DNA of 64,000 nucleotides from an uncultured Gammaproteobacteria bacterium (GCA_964395115.1 CAYMZX010000003.1:14111-78110), one strand, 5' to 3'. Numbered from the stretch's first letter, positions 17,387 through 55,991 are shown. Notes: a model not told the origin generated them from the letters alone. Translations and numbers: made by a program.

Positions 17387-17767
17387 TTACCTTATTCTGT
17401 TTTCGATAATACGGATCTCCGTAGAATTTGGGTGAATTATTCTTGCCTTATCGTATGCAAAGCGCGCTTCGGCCAGATCGCCAAGATCTAGGTTTATGGT
17501 GGCCAGTTCAATCCACGCGTAAAAATAATTCGGATTTTGTTGAAGAAATTTTTTCCAAAATTCTTCGTTTTTCTTCAAACCAACGAAGACATAATCAGTT
17601 GTTTCAGTGGCTACTCCCAAGACCCGTTTGTGGGACAAATATGAATTAATATTGAAAGAAGTTATCAAAAGAATTAAGCAGGTGGCGCAGCAGGAACAAA
17701 AAAGTATAATTTGTTTTTTAAAATTGTATTTTCGCGAAGAATTTTTCTTTTGTGCAGACTTGACCAT
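17387..17767 (-). CDS. Small membrane-anchored TPR-like protein
   Basis: 126 aa with an N-terminal TM and a TPR-like helix pair (NPNYFYAWIELATINLDLGDLAEARFAYDKA). Confidence 0.45.
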   Translation of the reverse strand: MVKSAQKKNSSRKYNFKKQIILFCSCCATCLILLITSFNINSYLSHKRVLGVATETTDYVFVGLKKNEEFWKKFLQQNPNYFYAWIELATINLDLGDLAEARFAYDKARIIHPNSTEIRIIENRIR

Positions 17768-17806
17768 TGCAATTTTTTGAACCTTTATGTTAAGCTGGTT
17801 TTAAGT

Positions 17807-33000: not shown

Positions 33001-33001
33001 T

Positions 33002-33343
33002 TTAAAAACTGCCCACCAAAAAGATTATTTTAAGGGTGGTAATATAGGCAAAAAAGGTTCCCGCCACGCCCCCAAAAATAATTATTTTTTTAAGGAAATC
33101 CTCCTGTATTTTTAAGGCAATTAATGAATTAATTAAGATAATCACTAACGATGCCAGGGCGGGAATCACCAGAAAAAAACTTTTTACAAGTTGGTCCTCC
33201 CCTTCGGCCAATCCATAAAAAAGGGGGACTACCGGAGGAAGAAATTTTTGACTGAGGAGAACGATTCCGGCAAGAACAGCATTTAGAATTACACAAACGA
33301 CAATAAGTCTTCGAAACGGCAGGTCGGCGAGCCCCAATTTCAT
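33002..33343 (-). CDS. Small 3-4 TM membrane protein of unknown function
   Basis: 113 aa, hydrophobic, tightly packed in the glycosylation operon. Confidence 0.5.
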   Translation of the reverse strand: MKLGLADLPFRRLIVVCVILNAVLAGIVLLSQKFLPPVVPLFYGLAEGEDQLVKSFFLVIPALASLVIILINSLIALKIQEDFLKKIIIFGGVAGTFFAYITTLKIIFLVGSF

Positions 33344-33387
33344 AAGAGACTAGCTTCAATTTTACTCGAAGGAAGAGAAAGGAGCAA

Positions 33388-36137: not shown

Positions 36138-36144
36138 GTTTTCA

Positions 36145-37635
36145 CTATACCTTTTCGGTTACCCGATATTCAATATATTTCCCTAGCATAAGGCGGGTAT
36201 GGGCGTCGAGACCGGGGAGGGCGGTGAAAAAAAAGCCGGCGATTGGCATAAGAATAAATTCAAATGGGGCAACGAGGGCCTTCCAAAGAGGAACCTCCTT
36301 TGGCCTTTTTGGTTTATAGAAATTATTGATAATTATCATTATTACTAAGAAGCCGAGTGCTACAGTCAACACATAAGAAGAAAGTCGGGGGACGGTATAG
36401 CCGAGGGTAGTTTTGGCAAAAGCGGGGTTTAAAATTGAGGGGATAGTTAATCCTAGCGTGATAATAAACCAATTGACGGGCCACATAAAATGAGCCCAGA
36501 GAGCGTATATTAATCGCATGGTCTTGTCCCAAAAGGGGACCCCGGGCGTTAAAAAGTAATTTTTTATTATCCAGGGGTCATCCGAAACGCCCCAGGCCCA
36601 CCTTTTGTATTGTTCGTATTGATTTTTTAATGTTTTCAGTAAAGAGGTCGATTGAGGCGCATCCGCATGTAGTGGTAGATAAATGGGTTCAACTTCGACC
36701 CCTCCCCGTTTTTTGTAATAGGCCTTAAAGAAGATTCCCCAATCTTCCGGAATTTTATCTGGGTCCCAGTAATCAACCTCATCAAGGAGTTTAAAAGAAA
36801 GAGAGTAGTTTTGCTGGTTGATGAGCCGGTCTTTTCTCGACAATTGGGAAAGATTCCAGATCGAAGAGATTGTGTTGGGAACTCGCGTAATGGCCGGCAA
36901 TTCCCAGATATTGTTGTAAAACATCACTGCCGGTTGCCAGAAATATCGGTAACGATTTGGATTATCAAGGAATTTAAAAGTCAGACATGAGAAGTGTTTG
37001 GGATGATACACGTGGTCGGCATCACAAGAGGTGATAGTTAAATAATTTATATCGTACAATAGTTCGTCTATAAGTTTTTTCTTAGCCCAAATACCAGCAT
37101 AGCGTTCATTAGAAGCCTTTCCTACAACCTCGCCGGGCCCCAGCCTATGGACAGTTACAAAGAAATGGCCGAAGGTTTTACCGAATTTTTTGGTGAGAGC
37201 CAGCGCTTTCCCAAGTCTTTGTTCTTTTTCCTCCTTCTCTTCCATTGCCAGAATTACAATTAGCTGTTTTTTGGGAAAATCCTGCCTGGCTAATGAGGTA
37301 AGTGTTCTTTCCAGGATATAAAGAGGTTCTTTATAGGTGGGGACAATAATTATGTGGTGGACCTTTTTCCAGTCAGAAAATGGTTTGAGATCCCCAAGCC
37401 AATCATAACTCAAAGAAGCCTGAATTTTTAAATGGGAGATAAAGGCGGCGAGAGCTATTTGAAGAGACTGGTAAAACCAATAGATATTAAAAGCAAGAAC
37501 GAAATAAGCAACTACATTAGGAATTATAAAAATTCCCCAATAAGGAAAAAGAATAGCGTTCCAAGAAAAAAGACCGGGGAGAATTTCTAAGAAACGGTGG
37601 ATGAGTTTATCATGCTTTACGAAAAGGTTCCTCAT
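36145..37635 (-). CDS. Membrane GT2 glycosyltransferase of the processive (cellulose/chitin-synthase-like) type
   Basis: IIIVPTYKEP, DAD and QYKRWAWG (the QxxRW motif), with N- and C-terminal TM helices. Confidence 0.8.
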   Translation of the reverse strand: MRNLFVKHDKLIHRFLEILPGLFSWNAILFPYWGIFIIPNVVAYFVLAFNIYWFYQSLQIALAAFISHLKIQASLSYDWLGDLKPFSDWKKVHHIIIVPTYKEPLYILERTLTSLARQDFPKKQLIVILAMEEKEEKEQRLGKALALTKKFGKTFGHFFVTVHRLGPGEVVGKASNERYAGIWAKKKLIDELLYDINYLTITSCDADHVYHPKHFSCLTFKFLDNPNRYRYFWQPAVMFYNNIWELPAITRVPNTISSIWNLSQLSRKDRLINQQNYSLSFKLLDEVDYWDPDKIPEDWGIFFKAYYKKRGGVEVEPIYLPLHADAPQSTSLLKTLKNQYEQYKRWAWGVSDDPWIIKNYFLTPGVPFWDKTMRLIYALWAHFMWPVNWFIITLGLTIPSILNPAFAKTTLGYTVPRLSSYVLTVALGFLVIMIIINNFYKPKRPKEVPLWKALVAPFEFILMPIAGFFFTALPGLDAHTRLMLGKYIEYRVTEKV

Positions 37636-43821: not shown

Positions 43822-44670
43822 TTTTCGAAAAGGCAAAAGGTTTTTAATAAAAGTCCCGGGATATTCGACCTCATAGCCGCAAAAACTCTTCTTAAAATGG
43901 GTAAAACCCAACCAAGATTTATTAGGAAAGCGCTCGTCGTAAATCCCTTCAAAGTCAAACACCCTGGCGCCCATTTTTTTTGCCCAAAGAAGCCCCTCCC
44001 AAACGATTTTGTATTGAGCCAAGTTTTGCCTCCCCCCTTTTGAGGTGAAAGACTGCCAGTAATAAGCAACCGAATCGGCCAGTAAAAATATGGCGCCAGA
44101 CGACATTTCTTTGGTTGTCAGAAAAAAAGATTTCTTTTTGAAAGACTTTTTAAGTCGTATCAGGTGGTCCAGACTGGGGACGTATCTTTTTAGGCCAACA
44201 GCCTTTTTCCAAGCATTCCTAAAATCTTTTATTTCTTTCTCGATTTCTTTCTCGCAAGTTTCTAACTTGTTGGTTTTTCTAATTGCCAGCCGGGTTTCTT
44301 TCTTCAGTTTCCTAAAAATTTTTCTTTTTGACCGAGTCAAATCTATCTGCAAAGTTTTGGTGGGGAGAAAAGGGTTTTTGCTTGACTTAAAACCGACAGA
44401 GCTCAAGAATCGAGCATCCAGTTGGGTTTTCGGCTCGATAATTATCTGGAGGGCACGGTACTTTCTGGCTAACTCTCTGATTTTTTGAATTCTTATCTCT
44501 TCCGGTCTTTGTATTTTTATAATCGACCCGACAAGAAAAAGCTTTTTTATAAGCGGAGCTCGCAAAGCCAAAGGCTTTATGAAGTAATTTATTCCGGCGA
44601 ATCTCTCTACTTGCCAACCAATCTTTGATAAATAATTTGCGTAATCGATTGTCTGACGAATATCATTCAT
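43816..44670 (-). CDS. FemAB-family (peptidoglycan interpeptide aminoacyltransferase-like) protein
   Basis: C-terminal YYWQSFTSKGGRQNLAQYKIVWEGLLWAKKMGARVFDFEGI matches the FemAB C-terminal block. Confidence 0.6.
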   Translation of the reverse strand: MNDIRQTIDYANYLSKIGWQVERFAGINYFIKPLALRAPLIKKLFLVGSIIKIQRPEEIRIQKIRELARKYRALQIIIEPKTQLDARFLSSVGFKSSKNPFLPTKTLQIDLTRSKRKIFRKLKKETRLAIRKTNKLETCEKEIEKEIKDFRNAWKKAVGLKRYVPSLDHLIRLKKSFKKKSFFLTTKEMSSGAIFLLADSVAYYWQSFTSKGGRQNLAQYKIVWEGLLWAKKMGARVFDFEGIYDERFPNKSWLGFTHFKKSFCGYEVEYPGTFIKNLLPFRKL

Positions 44671-44671
44671 T

Positions 44672-45688
44672 TTAAAAACTCGGTTTAAAAAATCTGCTCT
44701 TGGCTTTTAAGATTAACCAGCGAATAAATTCTAACAGACGGTAAAACCGGTAGAGAGGGCTGGTTATCAAATCCCAGGTTCCCAAAAACTCGACGACTTC
44801 CGGATTGTAACCTTCTTTAAATCGGGTGAACCCCTTTCCTTCTTCTCGACCCCAAAGGTCAAATGTGGTCAAGCCCAAGGACTTGCCGAAACGGATTGCT
44901 TCCCACATCATCAAGTTATTGGCCATCACTTTTTTGTGTTCTTCGGTAGAGGCTCCATAGGGATAATAGAGGAAGTTGTGCCAGGTAAAAATAATCCAAG
45001 CGGAGATGATCCTTCCTTTATATTTGGCGCAAAGTAAATGGGCGATACCGGCCTTTTTTAAAGTTTCCCACATCAGGCGGTGGTAGCGCTCGGTATGGGC
45101 ATAAAATCGCTGGCGGGCAACTGTCTCCCGAGTAAGCTCGAGATATTTTTCAAAGGCCCTGTCCGAATTATCCTCGTCGACTTCGACCCCGTTTTTCTGG
45201 GCAACCTTGATGTTGTAACGGGTCTTGGGGTGAAATGAAATCAGAAGTTCTTCCTCGGTTTTTCTTAGATCTATCCAAAAAGAGGATGGCGTAAAAAGAT
45301 TTTTTCCAGGAACGGCTCCATGGCGTTTTAAAAGGGAAATAAGCTTTTCGCTTTTTTTTACATTAGGCTCCATTTTGATAAAAAGCAGATTTTTCTTTTT
45401 GGCGAAGCTTTTTAGAAATTCTAGCGTTTCTTTGTTGGGTTCCTGCCCCTTGATAAACATGCCGATTTTACAATTCGTTAAGGGGATTCGATGGAGAGTC
45501 AGTTGTATGGCTTCAATTAGTTTATCTCCTTCAAATCTTCCAAATCTGACAACTTCGTTGCCGGTCTTTTTCCTAAATTCGCCCCATTCCCAAGATTGGA
45601 GGGGGTGGATGGTTACCTCATTGAAAGCATCCTTTTCGGATTCAGAAACTTCTTTGATGGCCATGAGCCTTATTTGATATTGTAGCAC
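44672..45688 (-). CDS. FemAB-family aminoacyltransferase
   Basis: 338 aa with FemAB-like N- and C-terminal blocks (LMWEAIRFGKSLGLTTFDLWG). Confidence 0.7.
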   Translation of the reverse strand: MLQYQIRLMAIKEVSESEKDAFNEVTIHPLQSWEWGEFRKKTGNEVVRFGRFEGDKLIEAIQLTLHRIPLTNCKIGMFIKGQEPNKETLEFLKSFAKKKNLLFIKMEPNVKKSEKLISLLKRHGAVPGKNLFTPSSFWIDLRKTEEELLISFHPKTRYNIKVAQKNGVEVDEDNSDRAFEKYLELTRETVARQRFYAHTERYHRLMWETLKKAGIAHLLCAKYKGRIISAWIIFTWHNFLYYPYGASTEEHKKVMANNLMMWEAIRFGKSLGLTTFDLWGREEGKGFTRFKEGYNPEVVEFLGTWDLITSPLYRFYRLLEFIRWLILKAKSRFFKPSF

Positions 45689-45717
45689 GCCTAATGGTCA
45701 GTAAATTTACCGCCGTT

Positions 45718-47586
45718 TCAATCGCGGATGTATTTTTTGAGGATATGATCAAAACTTAAAAAATCAGGGTTGCCCACATCATTTTTTGTTGAACTCGAGA
45801 TTTTTTCCTCGAGCAATTCTTCCGGGATATCGAGAATAAACCTTGAAGGAGGATTGGAAATTTTTTCGCCGAAGTAAAGACGCCTAGTCGCATAAGATAA
45901 ATATAAAAGCTCTTTGGCGCGAGTCATACCTACATAAGCCAGACGCCTTTCTTCTTCCAACTCGTTGATATCAAAAAGACTGCGAGAGTGGGGAAAAATC
46001 CCTTCTTCCATTCCGACAATAATAACAACCGGAAATTCTAGCCCCTTGGCGGCATGGAGAGTCATCAAAGTCATCCGACCGTGATCGTTGTGCCCGGGCT
46101 TTTCCGGCTGACTGGCGCCTTCCTCGATTAACGCCACCTTTTCTAGAAAGTCATAAATGTTGGGAAATTCGGTGGCTACCGAGCGAAGCTCTTTTATATT
46201 TTCCAATCTGGCTAAATTTCCTTCGGTTTTCTTTTTGTATAAAGAAAGATAGTCCGTTTTTTGGAGAACTTTGTCCAAGAAGTCAAGGGTTGATAAAGAC
46301 TTATCTTTGAATTCTCTTTTAAATTCCATAAATTTTTCATAACGCTTTTTGCCCATTTTTTTGATTCTTCTATAAGAAACTGAATCGTGGCTATTCACCA
46401 AACCCCTAAGAAAAGAAAGAACATCCTTTATCTCTTTGCGCTCGTAAAATCTTGTGCCGCCAACCAGAACATAGGGGATTCCGGAACGAAGTAGGGCCTC
46501 TTCCAAGACGCGAGATTGGGCATTGGTTCGATACAACACTGCGATATCTTTGAAGCAATAACGGCTTAGGACAAGTGAAGAAATCTCATTGACCACAAAT
46601 AAGGCTTCGTCTGAACCGTTTTTGGCGCGGTAAAGTTTTATTCTTTCTCCGGGAAGATTCCGCGTCCAAAGTTTCAGGATTGGATGGGATTTATTTTTGG
46701 AGATAACTGAATTGGCAGCGGAGAGAATGTTTTGGGTTGAACGATAATTCTGTTCCAGATTTATCACCTTTATTCCAGGAAAATCCCTCATTAAATAGGT
46801 AATATTTTTAAAGTCGGCGCCTCGCCAACTATAAATTGATTGAGAAGCGTCTCCAACAGCGGTGATATTTTTGTCCTTATCGGCCAGAAGCCTAGTTAAA
46901 ACATATTGAATTTTATTTGTGTCTTGCCACTCGTCGATGAAAATGTGAGTTAGTCTGTTTTGCCAGTTAACTAGGACTTTAGGACTCTCTTTTAAAAGTT
47001 TTACTGCTTGGAGAAGTAAATCGTCAAAATCCAAGGCCCCTGCCTTTTTTAAAGCCCTTTCATATTCAGTATAAATTTTTAGGAATAACTTTTGTGAATC
47101 GTTTGTTGCGAGATCGGCATACTGACTGGCAGAAAGCATCTGGTTTTTGGTTTCGGATATTTGGGCAACGAAAGAAGCGGGACTGGATGACTTTGAAAGG
47201 TCTAATCCATTGAGGATTTGTTTAATCACCTCTTTTTGATCTTCCTCGTCGTAGATTAAAAAGTCAGGATAAATCCCTATTTCTCGGCCATCAATTCTTA
47301 AAATTTTTGCGCAGAATGAGTGGAATGTTCCAGAAAAAGGAGGCGGAAATTTAGTCAGTCGGGCAATTCTTTCTTTCATTTCGTCGGCAGCCTTGTTAGT
47401 GAAAGTAAGAAGGAGAGCGTTTTGAGGTTGGAGTTTATTTTTGGCGATAAAATAGGCGACGCGGTAGGTGAGAACTTTAGTTTTCCCGCTGCCCGCCCCG
47501 GCCAGAATTAGTAAGGGTCCTCCATCGTAGGTCACTGCCCTTTTTTGCTGTTCATTTAGACCGCAAAGAAGATTATGGAGAGCCAT
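45718..47586 (-). CDS. pcrA: UvrD/PcrA-type DNA helicase (short, 622 aa)
   Basis: LNEQQKRAVTYDGGPLLILAGAGSGKTKVLTYRVAY, a DEWQDT motif II and the remaining SF1 motifs. Confidence 0.85.
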   Translation of the reverse strand: MALHNLLCGLNEQQKRAVTYDGGPLLILAGAGSGKTKVLTYRVAYFIAKNKLQPQNALLLTFTNKAADEMKERIARLTKFPPPFSGTFHSFCAKILRIDGREIGIYPDFLIYDEEDQKEVIKQILNGLDLSKSSSPASFVAQISETKNQMLSASQYADLATNDSQKLFLKIYTEYERALKKAGALDFDDLLLQAVKLLKESPKVLVNWQNRLTHIFIDEWQDTNKIQYVLTRLLADKDKNITAVGDASQSIYSWRGADFKNITYLMRDFPGIKVINLEQNYRSTQNILSAANSVISKNKSHPILKLWTRNLPGERIKLYRAKNGSDEALFVVNEISSLVLSRYCFKDIAVLYRTNAQSRVLEEALLRSGIPYVLVGGTRFYERKEIKDVLSFLRGLVNSHDSVSYRRIKKMGKKRYEKFMEFKREFKDKSLSTLDFLDKVLQKTDYLSLYKKKTEGNLARLENIKELRSVATEFPNIYDFLEKVALIEEGASQPEKPGHNDHGRMTLMTLHAAKGLEFPVVIIVGMEEGIFPHSRSLFDINELEEERRLAYVGMTRAKELLYLSYATRRLYFGEKISNPPSRFILDIPEELLEEKISSSTKNDVGNPDFLSFDHILKKYIRD

Positions 47587-48696
47587 GTTAAAATTGATTC
47601 TAACATGGAGGAGTTGGTAGTAGAAAAGGAACCTGCCCCAAAAAAGAAGTCAAAGTTTTTTCAAAAAACGAAACGTCGTCTTTTAAGACACCTCTGGTTG
47701 GTAAGAATCGGAATTTTGATTTTAGTTTTCTTGGCGGGATATTTTCTCTTTAGTCTTTTAGGATCTTTATTTGCCAGGACAGGATTAGAAAACTATTTAA
47801 AAACCCTAAGCAACTTTATTTGGGACTCTCCTGCTAAAATTGAGACGGCAGAGGGTAGAACGAATATCCTGATTCTGGGTAAGGCCGGGGAGGGATACGG
47901 GGCCAAGGATTTAACCGATACCATAATTTTTGCCTCCATTTCTTATCCAAAATCAAAACTTTCCCTTATCTCTTTGCCTCGAGACATCTGGATTCCGGCC
48001 ATCCGAGCAAAAGTCAACAGCGCTTATTATTGGGGAAACCAGCGAAAAGAAAAAGGAGGGCTTATTCTGGCGAAATCAACCATAGAGGAAATCGTTGGCC
48101 AGCCAATCCACTACGCGGTCGTCATAGATTTTTCAGGATTTACCAAAATAGTTGATGTTATTGGAGGTATTGAGGTTAACGTGGAACGGGAATTTATCGA
48201 CGAAAAATATCCGGTTTCCGGCAAAGAAAACGATTTATGTGACGGAGATCCACTATTGGGTTGTCGCTATCAAACGGTAAAATTTGAAAAAGGTTTACAA
48301 ACAATGGATGGAGAAACCGCCCTCAAATTTGTAAGATCCCGAAATGCCGAGGGGGAGGAAGGTAGCGATCTGGCTAGGGCCAGCCGCCAGCAAAAAGTAA
48401 TTCTGGCTATCAAGCAAAAAATATTAAGCCGGAGCGTTCTTTTTTCCCCAAAGAGAATTTCGGCAATTTTGAAGGTGATCCGAGAATCAGTAGAAACGGA
48501 CATTGAAAGTCAAACAGGAGCGGTTCTAGCCAGATGGATTTTAGAGGCAAAAGATGATGTTTTCACTCATGTTTTAGCGGAGGACTTGCTTATTCATCCC
48601 CCAGTATCCCCCCGTTATGATAATCAATATGTTTTTATTCCCAAGGCTGGAGACTGGAGCAATATCCACCAATGGGTTTCTCAAAGGCTTCCCTAA
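47575..48696 (+). CDS. LytR-CpsA-Psr (LCP) family cell-wall polymer phosphotransferase
   Basis: N-terminal TM, then NILILGKAGEGYGAKDLTDTIIFASISYPKSKLSLISLPRDIW. Confidence 0.85.
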   Translation: MESHVKIDSNMEELVVEKEPAPKKKSKFFQKTKRRLLRHLWLVRIGILILVFLAGYFLFSLLGSLFARTGLENYLKTLSNFIWDSPAKIETAEGRTNILILGKAGEGYGAKDLTDTIIFASISYPKSKLSLISLPRDIWIPAIRAKVNSAYYWGNQRKEKGGLILAKSTIEEIVGQPIHYAVVIDFSGFTKIVDVIGGIEVNVEREFIDEKYPVSGKENDLCDGDPLLGCRYQTVKFEKGLQTMDGETALKFVRSRNAEGEEGSDLARASRQQKVILAIKQKILSRSVLFSPKRISAILKVIRESVETDIESQTGAVLARWILEAKDDVFTHVLAEDLLIHPPVSPRYDNQYVFIPKAGDWSNIHQWVSQRLP

Positions 48697-51092
48697 ATGG
48701 AAAAATGAAAATTCGACGTTACGACAAATATCTATTGCTTCTTTTAGTATTCAGCTTTTTTTTGCGGCTTTCTTTGTATAAAACCGGAACGTTCTGGCTC
48801 GATATAAACAGTTTCATTGCTTGGAGCAATACTTTGATCAAAACCGGTTTCGGCAATTTTTACAACAGTGTCTGGTCTGATTATTTGCCGGGATATCTTT
48901 ATATCTTGTGGCTCTTGGGCAAGATTAAAAATTTGGTTGGCTTTGACCAGCTTTTTCTATTTAAACTCCCGTCAATTTTTTCCGATTTAGCCACTGCCTA
49001 TCTCATTTATTTGATTGCGAAAAAAATTAAAGGCCCAAAAATAGGGTTGATTGCTTCGGCTTTCTACGCTTTGAATCCTGCAATAATATTTAATTCCACC
49101 CTTTGGGGACAGGCAGATTCACTGACCGCCCTTTTTTGTCTTTTGTCAATTTATCTTTTTGGAATAAACCACTTATTATCGTCGCTGGCGCTTTCTCTTG
49201 GGACCGCTTTTAAGCTTCAAGCTGCCTTAGCCGCTCCCATTATCTTGATGATGATGCTTAAGCATCGTTGGAGACCAAAAAAAATTGTAAGTTACATTCT
49301 CTTTTCGGTTGCAGTTTTTTTGTTAATTTTCTTGCCCTTCAATCTTCCGGATAAAAATCCGCCCCTTTTTATCTATGAGAGAATAAGAGTGACGCTGAAT
49401 CAATATCCATACGGTAGCGTCAATGCATTTAATTTTTGGGGCCTTTGGGGTTTTTGGAAACCAGATGGCGGAGGAATCACCCCCCTTAAAATTATAGGAA
49501 TCGGCCTTTTCGGTCTAATTTCAGGTTTAGCCATCGCTAGGTTTTGGCGGGAAAAACGAAGCGAATATTTGCTGGCGGCTATTTTGACGGCAGCTAATTT
49601 CCTCTTCTTTACCAGGATGCACGAGAGACACCTGTTACCCGTTTTTGCTCCATTGGCGGTTTCCGCGATAATCAATCCGGCTCTCTGGGTGTCCTATTTT
49701 GGATTCTCGTCAACCTATGTTTTGAATCTATATTTTGCTTTCGAACAGCAAGCCGTTGTTAAATCGGGAGTTTTTACTCTTCCGACAATCAAGGCGCTAA
49801 TCCTAGCTAATTTTGTTTTTTTTAGCCTCCTTTTTAACAAAACTAGCAAAATTCGCCTTTTCTATTTTTGGCCTAAAAAAAAGGATTTTTTTGAAAAGAT
49901 AAAGCCGAGAAAGAAAAACATTAGAATTTTTCTTGGCACCATTATTCTGTTCGCTTTAATAACAAGGGTTTTCTCATTAGGCTTTCCTCTTAAAGAATAC
50001 TTTGACGAAGTTTATCATGCCTTTACCGCCAGACAGATACTCCACGGAAACCCAATGGCTTGGGAGTGGTGGAATACACCGCCCGAAGGATTTGCTTATG
50101 AGTGGACCCACCCCCCTTTGGCCAAACTTGGTATGGTCGCCGGGATGTTAATTTTCGGAGAAAACCCGTTTGGCTGGAGAATACCAGGGGCTCTTCTAGG
50201 AACCGGGAGCGTTCTTTTGGTTTATCTTATCGCCAGCAAGATTTTTAAAGACGGACTCTCGGGAATTTTGGCCGCCGGAGTTTTTAGTCTTGATGGTCTA
50301 CCTTTGGTCATGTCTAGAATCGGGATGAATGACAGCTATCTATTATTTTTTGTTCTTGCCAGCGTTTATCTTTATTTGGCCGACAAATATTTTTGTTCTG
50401 CTTTGGCGTTTGGGTTGGCGCTCTCATCAAAATGGTCGGCGGCTTGGGCGATTCCTATATTTTTGGTCGCAACCTTAGTTTTTAGGAAAAAAATTCAATT
50501 AAGCCACCTTTGGTTCTTGTTATTGCCGCCACTGATTTATTTGGCAAGCTACCTCCCGATGTTTTTGACGAATCATGATTTTTCAACCTTTTGGGGAATG
50601 CAGAAACAAATGTGGTGGTATCACACCAAACTTAAAGCAACCCACGCTTATACTTCGCCCTGGTGGAGCTGGCCGCTCTTGGCTCGGCCTATTTACCTTT
50701 ATACTTCCAACGAAGCGGGCGGGGTTGTTTCCAGAATTTATGCCATGGGCAACCCTTTTGTTTTCTTGTCCGGAATAATTGCCGTTGTCCTGGCATCTTT
50801 TTTGGTGATAACTGGAAGAATTAAAAGGCTGATCTTTGTGGTTTTTGCGTATCTGATTCTGTTTGTCGGTTGGGCCGCCTCACCCCGAATAATGTTTTTG
50901 TACCACTACTTGCCTTCTCTTCCCTTTATGGCGATCGCGACCGGATATGTTTTGCGTCGTTTTCCCAAAGTTATTCTCCCTTTTTTCATTACTTCGGCTC
51001 TGCTGTTTGTCTATTTTTATCCACACTGGATTGGCTTGAGAATTCCTCTTTGGCTAGACAAAAGCTATTATTGGTTCGCTTCCTGGAGATGA
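48672..51092 (+). CDS. 806-aa two-module GT-C membrane glycosyltransferase (N-terminal DUF2029/mannosyltransferase-like module + C-terminal PMT/ArnT-like module)
   Basis: More than 20 TM helices. The second module starts with FDEVYHAFTARQILHG, a GT39/83 DE motif. It overlaps the LCP gene by 25 bp. Confidence 0.7.
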   Translation: MGFSKASLNGKMKIRRYDKYLLLLLVFSFFLRLSLYKTGTFWLDINSFIAWSNTLIKTGFGNFYNSVWSDYLPGYLYILWLLGKIKNLVGFDQLFLFKLPSIFSDLATAYLIYLIAKKIKGPKIGLIASAFYALNPAIIFNSTLWGQADSLTALFCLLSIYLFGINHLLSSLALSLGTAFKLQAALAAPIILMMMLKHRWRPKKIVSYILFSVAVFLLIFLPFNLPDKNPPLFIYERIRVTLNQYPYGSVNAFNFWGLWGFWKPDGGGITPLKIIGIGLFGLISGLAIARFWREKRSEYLLAAILTAANFLFFTRMHERHLLPVFAPLAVSAIINPALWVSYFGFSSTYVLNLYFAFEQQAVVKSGVFTLPTIKALILANFVFFSLLFNKTSKIRLFYFWPKKKDFFEKIKPRKKNIRIFLGTIILFALITRVFSLGFPLKEYFDEVYHAFTARQILHGNPMAWEWWNTPPEGFAYEWTHPPLAKLGMVAGMLIFGENPFGWRIPGALLGTGSVLLVYLIASKIFKDGLSGILAAGVFSLDGLPLVMSRIGMNDSYLLFFVLASVYLYLADKYFCSALAFGLALSSKWSAAWAIPIFLVATLVFRKKIQLSHLWFLLLPPLIYLASYLPMFLTNHDFSTFWGMQKQMWWYHTKLKATHAYTSPWWSWPLLARPIYLYTSNEAGGVVSRIYAMGNPFVFLSGIIAVVLASFLVITGRIKRLIFVVFAYLILFVGWAASPRIMFLYHYLPSLPFMAIATGYVLRRFPKVILPFFITSALLFVYFYPHWIGLRIPLWLDKSYYWFASWR

Positions 51093-51100
51093 ACTTCTTT

Positions 51101-51544
51101 TTATATTGCTAAAAGCAGAGATATCAAAAGTAGAAAAACTCCCATTCCCAACCAGATAATAGTCGGCCAGGAAATTCCTGCTTCAGGAAGCGATGGCTCC
51201 GCAGTTGGGCTTGCCTGCGCCAATGGACTAGGCGACGGAGAAACGGTCGGCGAAGGCGAAGGTGAAGGTGAAGCGGCGGGACTAGGACTAGGCGACGGAG
51301 AAACGGTCGGTGAAGGTGAAGCGGTTGGACTAGGAGAAGGCGAAACTTGCGTAATAGTAAAGGTAAGTTCCGTGCAAGATTGCGGGGGAGCTGCCTGGGG
51401 TTTACTGGTCGGCGCGGTAGGAGCGACCGGCTGCTGCCTTAACTGGTAAAGCCTATAGGCGGTAAAGACAGCAATTCCCGCCAAAACCAGGGTGGCTAGA
51501 AGGATGAGAACGGTTGCTATTTTGCTTTTAAAAAATGTTTTCAT
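51101..51544 (-). CDS. Ser/Pro-repeat surface protein with an N-terminal signal anchor and a C-terminal LPEAG + hydrophobic segment
   Basis: 147 aa. (SPSPSP/TVSP)n repeats. The C-terminus is SLPEAGISWPTIIWLGMGVFLLLISLLLAI. Confidence 0.55.
   Translation of the reverse strand: MKTFFKSKIATVLILLATLVLAGIAVFTAYRLYQLRQQPVAPTAPTSKPQAAPPQSCTELTFTITQVSPSPSPTASPSPTVSPSPSPSPAASPSPSPSPTVSPSPSPLAQASPTAEPSLPEAGISWPTIIWLGMGVFLLLISLLLAI
51225..51336. repeat. Imperfect ~60-bp tandem direct repeat (2 copies, the second with a 12-bp deletion) encoding the SPSPSP...TVSP stalk
   Basis: ggactaggcgacggagaaacggtcgg recurs at 51225 and 51285. A related GC-rich motif occurs at 52855-52925 in the next surface-protein gene. 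Confidence 0.5.
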
Positions 51545-51564
51545 TTTTGTTATTAATACTCCTT

Positions 51565-52725
51565 TTATTCAGACCAGCCTAAAGTCGTATGATGTATTTG
51601 AGCGCCAATTGTAAAAGTTGTTATGCCAGGCGGGATAGTATATTCATCATAAAACTCTTCCGACCCGGGTTTCTTCTGGGTTACTTCAGGTCGCTGGACG
51701 CCATTAATTTTGAATCTGGCTCTGTCAAATGAGCCCGAAGTGGTTGTACCCGCAACCGCAAAACGAATCGTATCTCCCGGCTTAAGACTTGAGAGTTGAC
51801 TAGAAGATAGTATATTCCAGCTTAAATCGTAGGCCTTTACATTGAGACATTGAGCGGTAGGACTAGCCCCCGGCGGAGGTGCTGTGGGGGCAGGAGAAGA
51901 TGTGGTGGTCACAGTTGTGCCAGCGCACTGGAAGCACCAATTTGGATTAGTTCCACTGCCTCGATTTTCCCAGTTGCAATTTCCTTCCCTAGCTGCAACA
52001 TTTCGATACCCACAATGAGCAATACAGGCCTCTTCCGCGGTATCCCTATTAATACCTCCAGAAATCCAACCGGGCCTACAAGTTTGTACTTGTGGAGTAG
52101 TGGTTGGGGTAGTAGTGGGCGAAGGCTCTTTAGTAGGTCCTTTCGCGGGAGACGGCTCTTTAGTAGGAACGGGAGTGGGTGTCTTAGTCGTCGGACAAGC
52201 TGCACGGCACTCGGTAGGAGTATTCCCCTTTGCTAGACATCCCTCATAACAAGGAAGACAGCAACCAATATTCTGACCGGCAGGCGAGACACAGCCTCCA
52301 GTAGAAGTTCCCATAAAAATATTTCCTGCCTGGTTGCAGGCTGAAAGGGTGCTGCATGTTCCAGAGTACCCACTGACTTTACAATCTTGGCCCGGGCCGG
52401 CCGCTTTTTCTCTTATATCTTGTTGTTGCTTAATAAGAATTACTCCCGCTCCGAGGCCGCCGACCAAAATCAGAAGTCCCAAAATAGTGGCGATTACTTT
52501 TCCGCCGCCGAATTTTTTCTTGGGAGAAATCGGAGTGACAACCGGGGGAAAATCAAAATTTGGAGCGGCCCCTTCTCCTGACATGGCGTCGGCTGGGATC
52601 GTGGAGTTTGTTTCCGGTGGAGGGGGAATGTTATCTGCGGGCAATGGAGGTATTTCGGCAACAACCGTAGGTTCCGCCGCCGGCTGATTTTGAGAGGAGC
52701 TGTTTGGATTATTCGGGCTCGGCAT
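51565..52725 (-). CDS. Type-II-oriented membrane protein with a Pro-rich N-tail and a Cys-rich (24 Cys) ectodomain
   Basis: 386 aa. TM at VIATILGLLILVGGLGAGVILI. Many CxxC/CC pairs and PT-rich linkers. No family recognised. Confidence 0.55.
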   Translation of the reverse strand: MPSPNNPNSSSQNQPAAEPTVVAEIPPLPADNIPPPPETNSTIPADAMSGEGAAPNFDFPPVVTPISPKKKFGGGKVIATILGLLILVGGLGAGVILIKQQQDIREKAAGPGQDCKVSGYSGTCSTLSACNQAGNIFMGTSTGGCVSPAGQNIGCCLPCYEGCLAKGNTPTECRAACPTTKTPTPVPTKEPSPAKGPTKEPSPTTTPTTTPQVQTCRPGWISGGINRDTAEEACIAHCGYRNVAAREGNCNWENRGSGTNPNWCFQCAGTTVTTTSSPAPTAPPPGASPTAQCLNVKAYDLSWNILSSSQLSSLKPGDTIRFAVAGTTTSGSFDRARFKINGVQRPEVTQKKPGSEEFYDEYTIPPGITTFTIGAQIHHTTLGWSE

Positions 52726-52731
52726 TTAGAT

Positions 52732-54078
52732 TTAAATTTCCGTCTTTCTCCAAATTAAAAGACTAACCAAAATTATTCCTACTCCCAGAATAGAGAAAAG
52801 GACTGTGGGAGTCAAGTTGCCAGAATCGTAGACTCCGGAAGAGGTTGACGGGATTGGCGAAATTCTGGGGGTGATGGTTGGAATGGGCGAAACCGTCGGC
52901 GATGGCGACGGCGAGGGGGAAGGTCTGGGAGTAGATGTTGGTGATGCCGAAGGGGTTGCTTCAAAAGAAGGACCTTCCGAAGCTTGGACAATGAAAGTCC
53001 TTCGCAGGGTTCTTAGGATTCCCGAAGCGTCTCTCCAAGAAATAGTTATTGTATGGGTCCCTTCCGCAAGGTTGGAGGGAGGGCTCCATTTCCATTGGCC
53101 GGATGAAGGAATTTTTAATGTTTCGGAAACCGGTTCTGACTCCACGGTGATGGTAATGGTTACTCCTGAAGGTCCTTTGCCAAAAAACTCCGGATCGGTA
53201 GTGGTTATGACTTCCCCTTCCTTAATACTTTCCAAAGTAACGTTTTTGGCCGACGGCGTAGCTGTTTTCTCTTCCACTTTAAAACCGGAAGAAGGAGTCT
53301 TTTCTTCGGGAAGACCGATTGAGGCGCTAGGAATTTGTCCCTTTCCAGCCGGCGGGAGATTTTTGAAATCATGAACTTGGCCAAGAATGATGGATGGAGC
53401 TGGTTTGGCCGATTGAGGATAAATTTGGGCCGAGGCAACATTTCCCAACCCGGCATTGACGGAAATTTCTATCAACGAATTTTTTTCGTCAATCTGGATA
53501 TAATCCTGCAAATCGGCGGTTCTGGCTGAAGATATAGGGGCAACCCAGTTGCCGGTTGCGGAAGTAATGGTTGAAAGAAGACTGCTTCCGCCAATCGTCA
53601 AATAAACCAAAGCATTCTTGGCCGGTTCGCCGGTTGCCGTCAAAATTATTCCAGAAATTAAGACAGTTTTGTTAGGAGTCGCCAGGGCCGAACCGGTTGT
53701 TATTTGCCAGGGAACGCCGTTATTATCGAAATCCTCTCCCCCGGAATTTATTTTAAAAAAATAGGTAGTTTGGGGAGACAGGCCCCTTAGAGTCAGAGTG
53801 TGGGTATGGCTTTGTGTGGCAAGTTCGTCTAATTCGGTTCGCGATAGGGAATTTTGATTTTCCCCCCACCTGACAAACCCGGATGTTTCTCTGTCGGTTA
53901 CCCAAGAAATGGTCAAAGAGGTATCGGTAATATTGGAAATGCGGACATCTTTGGGGGCGAACTCGCCGGTCGCGCCGAGGCGGAAAAAGAGTCGGCTTCT
54001 TATTAACATAACGCCGGCCGCTATCCCAATTACTAAAATTAGAATTCCAAGTAAAGTGGGGATTTTGCTTTTTTTCAT
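52732..54078 (-). CDS. Surface protein with an N-terminal signal anchor, FN3-like domain(s), a PS/PT-rich stalk and a C-terminal TM + basic tail
   Basis: The FN3-like block is VRISNITDTSLTISWVTDRETSGFVRWGENQ...LRGLSPQTTYFFKI. The C-terminus is LFSILGVGIILVSLLIWRKTEI. Confidence 0.55.
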   Translation of the reverse strand: MKKSKIPTLLGILILVIGIAAGVMLIRSRLFFRLGATGEFAPKDVRISNITDTSLTISWVTDRETSGFVRWGENQNSLSRTELDELATQSHTHTLTLRGLSPQTTYFFKINSGGEDFDNNGVPWQITTGSALATPNKTVLISGIILTATGEPAKNALVYLTIGGSSLLSTITSATGNWVAPISSARTADLQDYIQIDEKNSLIEISVNAGLGNVASAQIYPQSAKPAPSIILGQVHDFKNLPPAGKGQIPSASIGLPEEKTPSSGFKVEEKTATPSAKNVTLESIKEGEVITTTDPEFFGKGPSGVTITITVESEPVSETLKIPSSGQWKWSPPSNLAEGTHTITISWRDASGILRTLRRTFIVQASEGPSFEATPSASPTSTPRPSPSPSPSPTVSPIPTITPRISPIPSTSSGVYDSGNLTPTVLFSILGVGIILVSLLIWRKTEI

Positions 54079-54398
54079 GGCGTCGGGGTTGCCGATTCGG
54101 TGGCTACAGGTGTTGGAGTGGTTGTTGGCGACGGTCTAGGGGTTAGAAAAATAAAGGGACTGCTTGTAGGAACAGAAAAGTTACCAATCTCTTCTTCGGA
54201 AAAGAAAAGTCTACCCTCGATGCTATCTAACGACTCGGCATCCAATACTGGATTGAGTGGCTCAATGATGTCGGGCGGGACATTGGGCGATGGTTCATTT
54301 GTAAAAACTCGGTAGACGGTAAATATAGTCCAAAAGACAACCGTTATCATTGTCAAAAAAGCGATTGTAACGAGACTTGGTGTTTTTGAATTTTTCAT
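54075..54398 (-). CDS. Small membrane protein with a Pro/Thr-rich C-terminus (PilP-position protein?)
   Basis: 107 aa, N-terminal TM, positioned immediately after pilO. Confidence 0.45.
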   Translation of the reverse strand: MKNSKTPSLVTIAFLTMITVVFWTIFTVYRVFTNEPSPNVPPDIIEPLNPVLDAESLDSIEGRLFFSEEEIGNFSVPTSSPFIFLTPRPSPTTTPTPVATESATPTP

Positions 54399-55057
54399 TG
54401 CTGCTGCGAAAGGTAGGGAACCCGGCCGGTCACTAAAATTACCAAAACTTTCTCTGCCTCTGTTTTAGTTGCCGAAAATCCAACGTTGTCGACGGCTATC
54501 GGCCTTCTTAATTGTTCTAAGTTGGACAAGAAAGAAAAGAGGGCCGGGTAATCTCCAGAAACGCTCAAGGTAAAAGAAACATCACTGGCGCCCTCGGGAA
54601 GAGGAGTTAAGCCAGGTTCATCCTTTTTGGGCGTTGAGCTCTTACCCAGTAAAGTCACCTGCCCTATAGAAATTCCCAATAAATTGACAGAATTTCTGGT
54701 GGCGAGTCCTTCGATTTGGCGGACAAAAGTTTCAGGGGATGGAGAACTAGGGATTGAGCTCTCAACTAGAGGCAACCTTGCTGCTTCTGAATCCAAAATG
54801 GTCCGGGCCGCTGTCAAATTCTGAATTTTAGTATCCAATTTTGCCACCGTTTCTTCCTTGGATTTAATTTCTCGAGTGAGCGAGATGATGGTAATAACGG
54901 TGGGCTTTAAGGCAAAAGCGGTAAAGAAGGAAATTGTTCCCAAGGAAAGAAGAATTTCCAAAAACATCCGCAAGTCCTGTTTTTGTTTATAAATAGCAAT
55001 TATATTTAGAAAATAATCCTTGTATCTTAAATAACCACTTCTCCATCCAAGAGCCAT
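54395..55057 (-). CDS. pilO: Type IV pilus assembly protein PilO-like
   Basis: 220 aa with an N-terminal TM, a coiled coil and a ferredoxin-like C-domain. It directly follows pilN. Confidence 0.55.
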   Translation of the reverse strand: MALGWRSGYLRYKDYFLNIIAIYKQKQDLRMFLEILLSLGTISFFTAFALKPTVITIISLTREIKSKEETVAKLDTKIQNLTAARTILDSEAARLPLVESSIPSSPSPETFVRQIEGLATRNSVNLLGISIGQVTLLGKSSTPKKDEPGLTPLPEGASDVSFTLSVSGDYPALFSFLSNLEQLRRPIAVDNVGFSATKTEAEKVLVILVTGRVPYLSQQQ

Positions 55058-55062
55058 TTTGG

Positions 55063-55626
55063 TTAAACTCCTTTCTTGATTTTTAACTTTAGAGTAAATG
55101 TCAGCGATCCACTTTCTTGGTTAGTATCGATGTTGGTTAAATTTACTTCGTCAAACATTTTAGAATTTTCCAAGTTTACTATAAATTGAGCAATACTTAA
55201 TTCGCTGGGGGAGGCGCCTTTAACTTGGACAGAATCTTGATTGTAAGAATAGGAAATAAGAAAAATATCAACTGGCAAACGGGAGCTGATTTCTGACAGT
55301 GCTTCGGAGGCTATCCCCCCTTGTGAGGAAAGAGTCGAAAAAATCCGCAACCTCTTTTGAGTATTCCGAAATTCTTTTTCAAAATCAGACGAGGCGGAAA
55401 TAACCGCCATTTTTTCTTTAATAAGATCATTTAAATCGGCATTTCTAGCATCCAACCAAAATCGGGAAAGGAAAGCTGCCATTACGACCATCTCGGTGAT
55501 AATGACGATTATCCTGAAAGTGGACATTGTCCACTTCAAGACTCTTCCCGCCGTAGTCCCTTCAAATTCTTGTTGCGGAAGAAGATTGATTTGGTGTTTC
55601 TTGTCTTTCTGGGCAGCCATAAACAA
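55063..55626 (-). CDS. pilN: Type IV pilus assembly protein PilN
   Basis: Hallmark N-terminal INLLP motif (HQINLLPQQEF) followed by a single TM and a coiled coil. 187 aa. Confidence 0.7.
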   Translation of the reverse strand: MFMAAQKDKKHQINLLPQQEFEGTTAGRVLKWTMSTFRIIVIITEMVVMAAFLSRFWLDARNADLNDLIKEKMAVISASSDFEKEFRNTQKRLRIFSTLSSQGGIASEALSEISSRLPVDIFLISYSYNQDSVQVKGASPSELSIAQFIVNLENSKMFDEVNLTNIDTNQESGSLTFTLKLKIKKGV

Positions 55627-55677: not shown

Positions 55678-55935
55678 TTATTTTTTCTTTTTAGCTTTCG
55701 CTGCTGGAAGAAGCTTTGTCAAAGATTTTTTTATTCTTGCCGCCTTGTTTTTGTGGATAGCCCTTTTCTTGGCGGCTTTGTCGGCCAAGGAAATAGCTAA
55801 AAGAATTTTTTCTCGGCTCTTGACTTTCTTGGCGGTTCGAATACTCTTTTCTAATTTTGCGATAATTTGTTTATTAACCGTTGCCTTTCTTTTAGAAGCC
55901 GCGAGGGTTCTTTTCGCTGTCTTAGTTACAGGCAT
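55678..55935 (-). CDS. rpsT: 30S ribosomal protein S20
   Basis: MPVTKTAKRTLAASKRKATVNKQ...AIHKNKAARIKKSLTKL. Confidence 0.85.
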   Translation of the reverse strand: MPVTKTAKRTLAASKRKATVNKQIIAKLEKSIRTAKKVKSREKILLAISLADKAAKKRAIHKNKAARIKKSLTKLLPAAKAKKKK

Positions 55936-55991
55936 AGAATTTCTGGATTGTGAGTATAAGCTAAACAGGCTAGAATATCAATACTTAACTT

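Follow-up and report, generated by a model that had tools for sequence, protein, structure and literature searches.

A compact operon that begins with pilN and pilO and continues into four envelope protein genes was characterized on the minus strand of a 64,000-nt stretch of DNA (the window). The six genes overlap translationally and are co-inherited across Woesebacteria, which belong to the ultra-small Patescibacteria, and PilN and PilO are homologs of type IV pilus (T4P) proteins. On balance, we lean slightly toward reading the pair as PilN-PilO of the organism's own T4P machine, split from the other T4P genes and co-expressed with lineage-specific envelope proteins that would extend the alignment module outward through a Gram-positive-type wall. 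The features of the locus, counted from the first letter of the window, were as follows.

51101-55626, minus strand: operon of six ORFs, order PilN-PilO-p107-p448-p386-p147
55678..55935, minus strand: rpsT (ribosomal protein S20); PF01649 29.8 bits (cutoff 29.5), TIGR00029 33.9 bits (cutoff 33)
55953..55981, minus strand: best sigma-70-like promoter match, TTGATA-17-TATACT, 10/12 matches, upstream of rpsT
55992..57719, plus strand: murJ (lipid II flippase), divergent from rpsT; PF03023 on the identical gene in locus L001
48672..51092, plus strand: convergent PMT-family GT-C glycosyltransferase, 806 aa, ending 8 nt from the operon end; PF02366/PF13231/PF16192 on the identical gene in loci L001-L003

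The six genes were separated by 5, -4, -4, 6 and 20 nt, read 5' to 3' from pilN, and pilN lies 51 nt after rpsT. The ORFs and their spacing confirmed the first-pass annotation, which had described six tightly packed minus-strand genes following rpsT. The same placement of rpsT immediately upstream of pilN was seen in Woesebacteria loci. No terminator-like site was detected between rpsT and pilN on the minus strand, and a transcript running from rpsT to p147 could begin at the sigma-70-like site, as judged by consensus match only. A PMT or DUF2298 GT-C gene was also located downstream of the operon in loci L004-L008, and the PMT-family enzyme is a possible candidate for glycosylating the S/T/P-rich stalks of the operon proteins, to which it may be functionally linked.

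In Shapirobacteria and Microgenomates loci, murJ was directly upstream of pilN and co-oriented with it, in the order murJ, pilN, pilO in L079-L081. In the examined loci, the operon always lay among wall-biogenesis genes (murJ, GT-C/PMT, LCP, FemAB and UbiA). The flanks dnaK-grpE-hrcA-murJ-rpsT and PMT/DUF2298-LCP-uvrD-femAB were likewise conserved across Woesebacteria. Because this whole neighbourhood (murJ, GT-C, LCP, FemAB) is syntenic there, part of the operon linkage could reflect inherited gene order.

The gene order recurred in about 150 independent related loci, far beyond chance. It was complete in 46 of 74 species loci, most of the others lying on truncated contigs, and the median gaps across loci were 2, -4, -4, 5 and 4 nt. 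Among 63 loci that were selected through PilN and had enough downstream DNA, PilO was found in 62, p107 in 62, p448 in 55, p386C in 58 and p147 in 61. In the reverse direction, PilN-PilO-p107 was present upstream in all 44 loci selected through p448, and the operon context was seen in 6/6 loci selected through p386 homologs. The co-conservation of the downstream genes with pilNO, on which the first-pass annotation had made its reading depend, therefore held in both directions (55-62/63 and 44/44). Shapirobacteria retained a four-gene core of PilN, PilO, a small TM protein and p448, and this core was contiguous in L079-L081 with changed flanks, murJ being upstream and UbiA/GT-C downstream.

The identity of the first two genes was evaluated by profile searches.

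55063..55626, minus strand: PilN, 187 aa from TTG, or 185 aa from ATG at 55620
55576-55590, minus strand: INLLP PilM-binding motif of PilN, residues 13-17
55459-55521, minus strand: single TM of PilN, residues 36-56
54395..55057, minus strand: PilO-like protein, 220 aa, bitopic
54893-54967, minus strand: single TM of the PilO-like protein, residues 31-55

PilN scored 47 bits against PF05137 (cutoff 22.8), and the sole significant PDB match of its ortholog profile was M. xanthus PilN (3jc8_N, E 6e-4). The PilO-like protein, whose gene starts 5 nt after pilN, passed PF04350 marginally (23.1 bits, cutoff 22). Its ortholog profile matched only M. xanthus PilO in the PDB (3jc8_O, E 9e-5), and of six orthologs in Pfam, three matched PilO (best E 6e-7) and three T2SSM_b. 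Thus, the earlier calls of a pilN with INLLP and of a PilO-like gene behind it both survived, PilO marginally. INLLP was kept in 68 of 78 PilN orthologs, and the motif in Shapirobacteria was ISLL(G/Q) instead. In characterised systems, the INLLP peptide of PilN binds cytoplasmic PilM.

Neither pilM, pilB/T/C/D nor class III signal peptides were found within the 64-kb window, and these Pfam and signal scans agreed with the first-pass statement that pilM, prepilin, pilB/T and prepilin peptidase are missing there. Precomputed Pfam matches showed neither T4P core genes nor prepilins on the rest of the source contig, and regex-level searches of 161 loci likewise revealed none of them up to 10 kb from the operon. 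The called operon neighbours gave no PilM_2 Pfam match; rpsT or murJ was upstream in all loci examined. Because no T4P core gene was linked to the operon, the T4P connection rests on homology and one short motif. The window contained no sortase gene, and the operon proteins did not match sorting-signal families other than the LPXTG-type curated models. One complete Microgenomates genome encodes a sortase and a T4P locus in which PilM is present but PilN/O are not listed (PMC7143001). Sortase occurs nearly throughout Microgenomates, MdbA/VKOR disulfide machinery is enriched in CPR, and CPR bacteria generally have T4P components, PilN/PilO among them (PMC6744442).

The small gene after pilO was examined next to its orthologs.

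54075..54398, minus strand: p107, small bitopic protein, 107 aa, TM at 54306-54374
54201-54281, minus strand: conserved 27-residue motif of p107, VP.EIL.PL.P.LD..L..IE.R.FF

p107 overlaps pilO and p448 by 4 nt each. Its TM and PT-rich tail fit the small PT-rich membrane protein described earlier, and the tail, which is disordered, appears dispensable and not conserved since some orthologs are only 64-67 aa long. Pfam and PDB searches returned no relatives of p107 except spurious TM matches. PilP carries a lipoprotein signal and a C-terminal beta-sandwich (HR) domain that binds PilQ N0. p107 as PilP was rejected, as it has no lipobox, no PilP beta-domain and an uncleaved-type TM; only its gene position is analogous.

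The fourth gene encodes a multidomain protein with an S/P-rich stalk.

52732..54078, minus strand: p448, 448 aa, FN3 + transthyretin-like + Ig protein
53971-54078, minus strand: N-terminal anchor of p448
53698-53952, minus strand: FN3 domain of p448, fn3/Pur_ac_phosph_N domain match
53359-53661, minus strand: transthyretin/CarboxypepD_reg-like domain of p448
52987-53187, minus strand: Big_13 Ig domain of p448
52735-52833, minus strand: sorting-signal remnant of p448, VYDSG + hydrophobic segment + WRK

The p448 family was uniform in length and evolved as slowly as PilN (median identity 50% vs 49%). At its C-terminus, a [LVI]P.[TS]G motif is followed by a hydrophobic stretch and then a basic tail. 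The LPXTG-type motif was present in 52 of 56 members and the basic tail in 53 of 56, the window copy (VYDSG) being degenerate. Against TIGR01167 (cutoff 15.9), one ortholog C-terminus scored 18.1 and others 13.8-14.9; the window p448 gave no match. The FN3 character, stalk and C-terminal hydrophobic segment reported previously were retained, but the "TM + RK tail" is better described as the remnant of an LPXTG-type signal. From these sequence features, p448 looks like a structural machine part with a sortase-type wall anchor.

The last two genes encode a pair of Cys-containing proteins.

51565..52725, minus strand: p386, type II membrane protein, 386 aa, TM at about residues 78-100
52402-52563, minus strand: Pro-rich cytoplasmic tail of p386 with conserved motif, plus TM
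51925-52383, minus strand: hypervariable Cys-rich region of p386, 16 Cys
51568-51864, minus strand: conserved Ig-like C-terminal domain of p386
51847-51849, minus strand: C293 of p386, invariant unpaired Cys
51101..51544, minus strand: p147, 147 aa, SP-rich
51395-51544, minus strand: conserved N-terminal TM/juxtamembrane module of p147
51350-51379, minus strand: lone Cys-strand of p147, SCTELTFTIT; C57 is the sole Cys of p147
51209-51349, minus strand: SP repeats of p147
51104-51190, minus strand: LPEAG + hydrophobic C-terminus of p147, LPxAG type

The type II topology of p386 agreed with the first-pass annotation, but 17 Cys were counted rather than the 24 it had given. p147 is SP-rich, as it had noted, and also has an N-terminal TM and an LPEAG-hydrophobic C-terminus that had gone unnoticed. 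In the p147 family, LPxxG was found in 64/64 orthologs and a basic tail in 1/64; the window p147 scored 13.8 bits against TIGR01167, below the cutoff of 15.9. The N-terminal anchor of p448 is homologous to that of p386, and the p448 C-terminus to that of p147. Apart from the Cys count of p386 and the nature of the p448 C-terminus, nearly all details of the earlier description stood.

The p147 gene always directly followed the p386C gene, and in L053 and L058 the two genes were duplicated together. In each of the two proteins the ends are conserved, the Cys-rich inserts are hypervariable, and a single unpaired Cys is invariant. Cys parity was odd across loci, locus L034 had exactly one ectodomain Cys in each partner, and the other operon proteins were essentially Cys-free. 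The p147 Cys-strand was present in 61/61 cases with a p386C neighbour and in 0/3 without; in an independent set the values were 31/32 and 2/9, the partnerless p147 proteins of L151 and L152 retaining the strand. Very few evolutionary events may underlie this association, because the p147 proteins that have no partner seem to belong to a single subfamily. The obligate adjacency, the conserved ends and the single invariant unpaired Cys in each protein suggest that p386 and p147 form a disulfide-linked heterodimer. In the AF2 model, the C-terminal domain of p386 was a seemingly complete beta-sandwich, so strand complementation would not be required.

The operon was compared to known systems. It shares homologous PilN/PilO and a retained INLLP with the diderm T4aP module PilM-PilN-PilO-PilP(-PilQ) (P. 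aeruginosa; M. xanthus, PDB 3jc8), and its order of pilN, pilO, a small anchored protein and a large beta-rich outward protein parallels pilN-pilO-pilP-pilQ. However, it lacks an adjacent pilM, is apart from all other T4P genes and occurs without an outer membrane, and p448 is an FN3-TTR-Ig protein with an LPXTG-type signal rather than a secretin. The T4P loci of Clostridium and Streptococcus sanguinis contain contiguous pilM-pilN-pilO. In Saccharibacteria TM7x, pilMNO lies within a complete T4P locus with pilB/C/D/T and pilins (PMC11623550). Such monoderm and CPR loci share the wall-bearing, secretin-less setting, and the PilN/PilO families are widespread in CPR (PMC6744442), but here pilNO is split off beside rpsT/murJ, in an operon with four non-pilin envelope proteins.

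The p448-family C-terminus, the S/T/P-rich stalks and the nearby LCP and FemAB genes resemble those of Gram-positive sortase-dependent LPXTG proteins (TIGR01167/PF00746). They differ in an extended shared motif (G-x-L/W-T/P-P-T), in the missing basic tail of p147, in the degenerate motif of the window p448 and in conserved N-terminal anchors that look retained, not cleaved. Actinomyces oris GspA is an LCP-glycosylated, sortase-dependent LPXTG surface protein. The Pam pili of CPR form by donor-strand exchange and have chaperones anchored in the membrane as well as PamR, an FnIII anchor protein (10.64898/2026.03.03.709456). They occur in the same lineages, including Microgenomatia, and share Ig-like/FnIII proteins with C-terminal TM helices, paired cysteines, possible glycosylation, and a highly conserved C-terminal Ig-like domain with a conserved single strand in the partner. 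In contrast, pam adjoins ATP synthase genes, relies on Sec signal peptides and lacks PilN/PilO, which sets the two apart by description; the six operon proteins gave no PapD/FimC-like chaperone Pfam match, and their neighbours were rpsT/murJ/PMT, not ATP synthase. The PilM/N/O homologs of the flagellar motor cage (PMC10823254) are a precedent for a PilNO module working with new partners outside the pilus machine; no flagellar gene was found at the operon, and the parallel is conceptual only.

Under the T4P-machine reading, PilM encoded elsewhere would dock on PilN, and p107, in the gene position of diderm pilP, would join the PilN-PilO dimer. The N-terminal helix of p448 would stay in the membrane while sortase joins its LPXTG-type C-terminus to peptidoglycan, which would tether the machine to the wall. 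In diderms, this tethering is performed by PilP-PilQ with TsaP/FimV. In Woesebacteria, membrane-anchored p386 and wall-sorted p147 would pair via the Ig-like C-terminal domain and the lone Cys-strand, be locked by a C293-C57 disulfide, and present hypervariable Cys-rich modules, the probable binding sites for host or substrate. The adjoining PMT-type and LCP enzymes may glycosylate the S/T/P stalks. Of the earlier proposal of a competence-related alignment complex coupled to novel surface adhesins, the PilN/PilO part holds, adhesin-like modules were confined to p386/p147, and the competence link found no support.

It is also possible, although we doubt it, that PilN/PilO no longer serve a T4P and were co-opted as the membrane platform of a Microgenomates-specific, sortase-anchored, wall-spanning complex of p107, p448, p386 and p147. 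The operon was never near T4P genes (161 loci and the source contig) and always amid the wall-biogenesis genes named above, the overlaps that join pilO, p107 and p448 hint at a dedicated complex of fixed stoichiometry, and the linkage of p448 to PilNO was absolute (44/44). Recruitment of PilMNO has a precedent in the flagellar motor cage of Campylobacterota (PMC10823254), and Microgenomatia also make Pam pili, which are not T4P, out of Ig-like proteins anchored in the membrane (10.64898/2026.03.03.709456). However, an INLLP kept in 68/78 orthologs is hard to explain without PilM, PilM is a T4P-locus gene in one described Microgenomates genome where no other PilN/O was reported (PMC7143001), and PilN/PilO are among the general CPR T4P components (PMC6744442). 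A bolder version, which we likewise doubt, would place PilN/PilO at the membrane base of a non-T4P envelope organelle that has so far gone unrecognised, with p448/p147 sortase-fixed to peptidoglycan, a p386-p147 disulfide heterodimer with hypervariable Cys-rich heads, and perhaps wiring to the cytoplasm via INLLP and the p386 motif.

Synteny by itself seems an unlikely explanation, in which pilN-pilO would be T4P genes of the usual kind and the four genes behind them would encode unrelated surface proteins (wall-anchored or glycosylated coat proteins and adhesins) in a vertically inherited neighbourhood, perhaps on one transcript. The conserved flanks imply that gene order is generally stable in Woesebacteria, no known T4P system has such partners, and the p386/p147 inserts are hypervariable as in free-standing adhesins. 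Against this, 4-nt start/stop overlaps join pilO-p107-p448, the four-gene core stayed contiguous despite the flank change in L079-L081, independently selected p448 homologs had PilN-PilO-p107 upstream in 44/44 loci, and the p448 ectodomain matches PilN in constraint, which sets it apart from typical coat proteins or adhesins. It is very improbable that the downstream proteins are atypical pilus subunits assembled into a fibre by the PilNO machine. In all four, a Lys-rich start leads into a conserved hydrophobic helix of 20-22 residues that contains Gly/Ala and is superficially like pilin alpha1-N, but none has the class III Gly at -1 or Glu at +5, and no such signal was found in the window. 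Moreover, p386 has a 75-residue cytoplasmic extension ahead of the helix, and the C-terminal membrane/sorting segments of p448 and p147 are incompatible with extraction into a type IV filament.

The operon thus provides concrete, lineage-wide candidates for holding the T4P machine in the secretin-less, wall-bearing envelope of Patescibacteria, in whose host-dependent lifestyle pili are presumed to play a central part. These candidates are a putatively wall-tethered (covalently bound) FN3-Ig protein (p448) and a mini-protein (p107), both genetically inseparable from PilN/PilO. p386 and p147 would form a paired, probably disulfide-linked surface module, and its variable heads are the obvious candidates for recognising a host. 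The operon also points to a CPR version of the LPXTG sorting signal, and four "hypothetical" membrane protein families typical of Woesebacteria and other Microgenomates gain a context and testable roles.

The first-pass annotation had placed pilN, a PilO-like gene and four further genes directly after rpsT, and this packed arrangement was confirmed by ORF coordinates and spacing. The four downstream proteins are named by their lengths in amino acids.

55678-55935, minus strand, rpsT (S20), directly upstream of pilN; S20 models just above cutoff
55063-55626, minus strand, PilN ORF
54395-55057, minus strand, ORF of the PilO-like gene
54075-54398, minus strand, p107 ORF
52732-54078, minus strand, p448 ORF
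51565-52725, minus strand, p386 ORF
51101-51544, minus strand, p147 ORF

The gap from rpsT to pilN is 51 nt, the subsequent gaps are 5, -4, -4, 6 and 20 nt, and just 8 nt separate p147 from the end of a convergent gene of the PMT family. By consensus matching only, the best promoter-like site on the minus strand sits 5' of rpsT, and no terminator-like site was found between rpsT and pilN. The earlier descriptions of the downstream proteins (a small PT-rich membrane protein, an FN3-like stalk protein, a Cys-rich type-II membrane protein and an SP-repeat protein) were upheld except that the Cys count of p386 is 17, not 24. The PilN start is ambiguous between TTG 55626 (longest ORF, 187 aa) and ATG 55620 (185 aa, MAAQKDKK...); the ATG agreed better with the ortholog alignment and with publicly available gene calls, and the 185-aa form is on record while the 187-aa form is not. 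In some sources p107 is called as 91 aa, which would cut the conserved TM, and the orthologs back the 107-aa start. No DNA-level tandem repeats were detected in the SP/PT regions at TRF default thresholds.

Wall and envelope genes are dense around the operon (43816-51092 and 31007-37635), a gene set that would fit stalk proteins rich in S/T/P being glycosylated and attached to the wall.

48672-51092, PMT-type GT-C
47575-48696, LytR-CpsA-Psr
43816-45688, two FemAB-family genes
36145-37635, GT2
33388-36137, two large unannotated polytopic proteins
31930-33000, MraY/WecA-like
31007-31957, UbiA prenyltransferase

In addition, 14019-16679 (+) encodes an 886-aa DUF4012 protein (PF13196, 89.8 bits), and an O-antigen-ligase-like (Wzy_C) gene lies upstream of it, at 12223-13464.

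PilN matched PF05137 with 47 bits (cutoff 22.8) and carries the PilM-binding peptide INLLP (residues 13-17) ahead of a single TM. PilO matched PF04350 with 23.1 bits (cutoff 22), matches to T2SSM_b, GspM and DivIC were weaker, and 3/6 PilO orthologs matched PF04350 individually. Six-ortholog profiles compared with the whole PDB gave M. xanthus PilO (E 9e-5) and PilN (E 6e-4) as sole matches. Both proteins thus passed the profile searches proposed for them, and on these matches the two assignments stand, with PilO as a divergent member. PilP was considered for p107 and rejected, as p107 has no lipobox, no beta-domain and no profile match.

Contigs from JGI, ENA, NCBI and Logan, the longest of 116.8 kb, encode identical proteins. 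The operon proteins of the window had no name in any public source checked, and the named homologs belong to Woesebacteria, Microgenomates or Patescibacteria. The order rpsT-pilN-pilO-small gene-(p448)-p386-like-p147-like was present in 6/6 contexts picked through p386 homologs of falling identity. A PilN alignment scan of species-representative genomes then gave 74 loci, in which gene order was read with custom HMMs, including those for the C-terminal domain of p386 (p386C) and the N-terminal module of p147 (p147N). The full order PilN-PilO-p107-p448-p386C-p147N was found in 46/74 loci, and the exceptions were mostly truncated contigs. In the 63 loci whose downstream DNA reached 5.5 kb or more, PilO occurred in 62, p107 in 62, p448 in 55, p386C in 58 and p147 in 61. 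Across loci, the genes were separated by a median of 2, -4, -4, 5 and 4 nt. The reverse test used a divergent p448 alignment and gave 79 metagenome loci; PilN-PilO-p107 lay immediately 5' of p448 in all 44 with enough upstream DNA. The conservation in relatives that had been suggested as a check was therefore found.

The flanks differ in three loci from Shapirobacteria and other Microgenomates (L079-L081), with murJ directly upstream and UbiA/GT-C downstream. These loci keep PilN, PilO, a small TM protein and a p448-like protein together (the latter with 30% identity, the same architecture and IPN[TS]G + TM) without p386 or p147, which indicates a four-gene core and a Woesebacteria-specific pair.

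The p448 family comprised 584 matches of uniform length at identities of at least 50%. In the same genomes, median identity was 50.3% for the p448 ectodomain, 49.0% for PilN and 42.9% for PilO. The p448 ectodomain is thus as conserved as PilN, which is how a component of a machine behaves and not how a variable adhesin does; the earlier label of surface adhesins does not suit p448. The C-terminus of the orthologs carries [LVITAM]-P-x-[TSA]-G in 52/56, then x-L-T-P-T, about 20 hydrophobic residues and, in 53/56, a basic tail, and is predicted to be an LPXTG-type sorting signal. Curated models matched by these C-termini were of LPXTG type only; for TIGR01167 (cutoff 15.9), one ortholog scored 18.1 and others 13.8-14.9. 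The p448 of the window has VYDSG at residues 416-420 (52819-52833) in place of the pentapeptide and no curated-model score, and in this organism it may stay membrane-anchored and not wall-linked. Fold matches were generic FN3 and transthyretin-like, and a specific p448 function was not assigned from them.

In the p386 family, a Pro-rich cytoplasmic tail with the conserved motif ..AP..D.PPV.T...PKKKFGG.K accompanies a TM followed by QQQDIREKA. For the Cys-rich middle of p386, no other species gave an alignment (0 loci). The C-terminal domain of about 95 aa showed a median identity of 52% and a maximum of 80%. In the p147 family, the N-terminal TM/juxtamembrane module is highly conserved, at 62% median identity. 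Besides this module, the proteins contain a lone strand of the pattern C-x(1-2)-h-x-F-x-h, inserts of low complexity or rich in Cys that vary, and a C-terminal LP-x-[SA]-G-x-x-W-P-T with a hydrophobic segment (motif in 64/64, basic tail in 1/64). The first ~40 positions of the p448 HMM aligned to the p386 anchor and the last ~80 to the p147 C-terminus; thus the three families share N- and C-terminal modules, which were found nowhere else in the window.

The SP repeats of p147 (51209-51349) were compared with the homologous loci L001 (11182-11685) and L002 (1267-1770). p147 is 147 aa long in the window and an ENA contig and 167 aa in two JGI contigs with identical p386; the longer form has 20 residues of its SPSPSP repeat duplicated, and repeat length is thus polymorphic between populations. 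Separately, the ORF at 17807-18310 (+) (listed as 17711-18310) encodes another small protein of surface type, which combines a Pro-rich N-terminal region, a TM and a 4-Cys module (CTEEVMICPDGTAVGRVGPNCEFAPC) and has a PT-rich tail after the module. Inserts in p147-family proteins of other species (L046, L068) closely resemble this Cys module, suggesting that a Cys-rich module has been shuffled.

Where the pair occurs, the p147-family gene always lies directly 3' of the p386C gene. In L053 and L058 the two genes have been duplicated together, giving two pairs in each, and in L159 (metagenome contig Ga0209542_10052212) p448 is followed by four p386C-like ORFs; these expansions point to local amplification of a variable-head module. 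Six alignment columns are invariant among 78 sequences, and C293, in the first strand of the p386 C-terminal domain, belongs to them. Ectodomain Cys counts were odd in 60/62 p386 orthologs (38/41 in an independent set) and in 60/64 p147 proteins, where they cluster at 1, 3, 9, 17 and 25. One locus (L034) has exactly one ectodomain Cys per partner; in the window, p147 has the single Cys C57, and PilN, PilO, p107 and p448 have none.

The isolated Cys-strand was present in 61/61 p147 proteins with a p386C neighbour versus 0/3 without (Fisher 2.4e-5, no phylogeny correction), and in the metagenome set in 31/32 versus 2/9 (1.2e-5, likewise uncorrected). Since the proteins without a partner appear to form a single subfamily, few independent events lie behind this association. 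Exceptions are L151 and L152, metagenome loci whose p147-family proteins (306-317 aa, 15 Cys) directly follow p448 without p386C and keep the strand. The simplest reading of these patterns is a C293-C57 disulfide-linked p386-p147 heterodimer. Such a disulfide would be chemically plausible, since MdbA/VKOR are enriched in CPR (PMC6744442). A thioester domain was rejected for the conserved Cys because the domain spans just about 95 aa and Pfam gave no TED-like match.

The reported absence of pilM, prepilin, pilB/T and prepilin peptidase was borne out: neither these, pilC nor class III signal peptides (any frame) were found in the window, nor in the rest of the source contig. At the regex level, no T4P ATPase signature or prepilin-like ORF lay within 10 kb in 161 loci. 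Left of the window edge, a conjugation-type T4SS was found instead of pilM or a T4P core. The adjoining contig DNA on that side (L083, 1-9890) carries a tandem array of eight small T4SS_pilin (PF18895) genes as well as three large proteins with no annotation. Inside the window, a Gram-positive-like T4SS module adjoins dnaN/dnaA at 1154-6861 (+).

1154-2203, plus strand, PrgI-like protein
2200-2859, plus strand, TraC-like protein
2856-4646, plus strand, VirB4/TraG P-loop ATPase
within 1154-6861, plus strand, 736-aa unknown protein

Saccharibacteria carry pilM-pilN-pilO side by side within complete T4P loci (PMC11623550). For Microgenomates, the one complete genome described has a single T4P locus with PilA, minor pilins, PilD, PilB, PilT, PilC and PilM; PilN/PilO are not listed there, and the genome has a sortase (PMC7143001), an enzyme near-ubiquitous in Microgenomates (PMC6744442).

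We lean slightly towards a PilN-PilO module of a T4P machine, detached from pilM and placed in an operon with lineage-specific envelope partners. INLLP is kept in 68/78 PilN orthologs, which argues that these proteins would still bind PilM. The missing T4P ATPase signatures and prepilin-like ORFs within 10 kb (161 loci, regex level) and an operon neighbourhood of mostly wall-biogenesis genes count against a T4P link, and PilNO might have been co-opted into a non-pilus envelope organelle, to which we give a low probability. Mere synteny with unrelated surface proteins appears just as doubtful: conserved order could arise in this way, but the genes overlap, the core survives rearrangement, and the reverse linkage held in 44/44 loci. 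That the downstream proteins are atypical pilins is hardly credible because class III signals are absent from every frame of the window. Membership in a Pam pilus operon was rejected on gene content and neighbourhood.

Under the favoured T4P-module reading, p107 would be a mini-adaptor at the pilP gene position, and p448 a membrane-to-peptidoglycan tether attached via sortase. In Woesebacteria, a disulfide-linked p386-p147 module would display hypervariable heads.

Each element is of a known kind, be it PilN, PilO, the sortase signals or the Ig/FN3 surface proteins, and the combination of PilNO with four partners was not described in the literature searched. What appears new from the compared loci is a split pilNO operon inseparable from a predicted sortase-signal FN3-Ig protein and a mini-protein, together with an obligate gene pair with one unpaired Cys per partner. 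The comparative-genomic pattern is well supported, and the proposed mechanism is testable.
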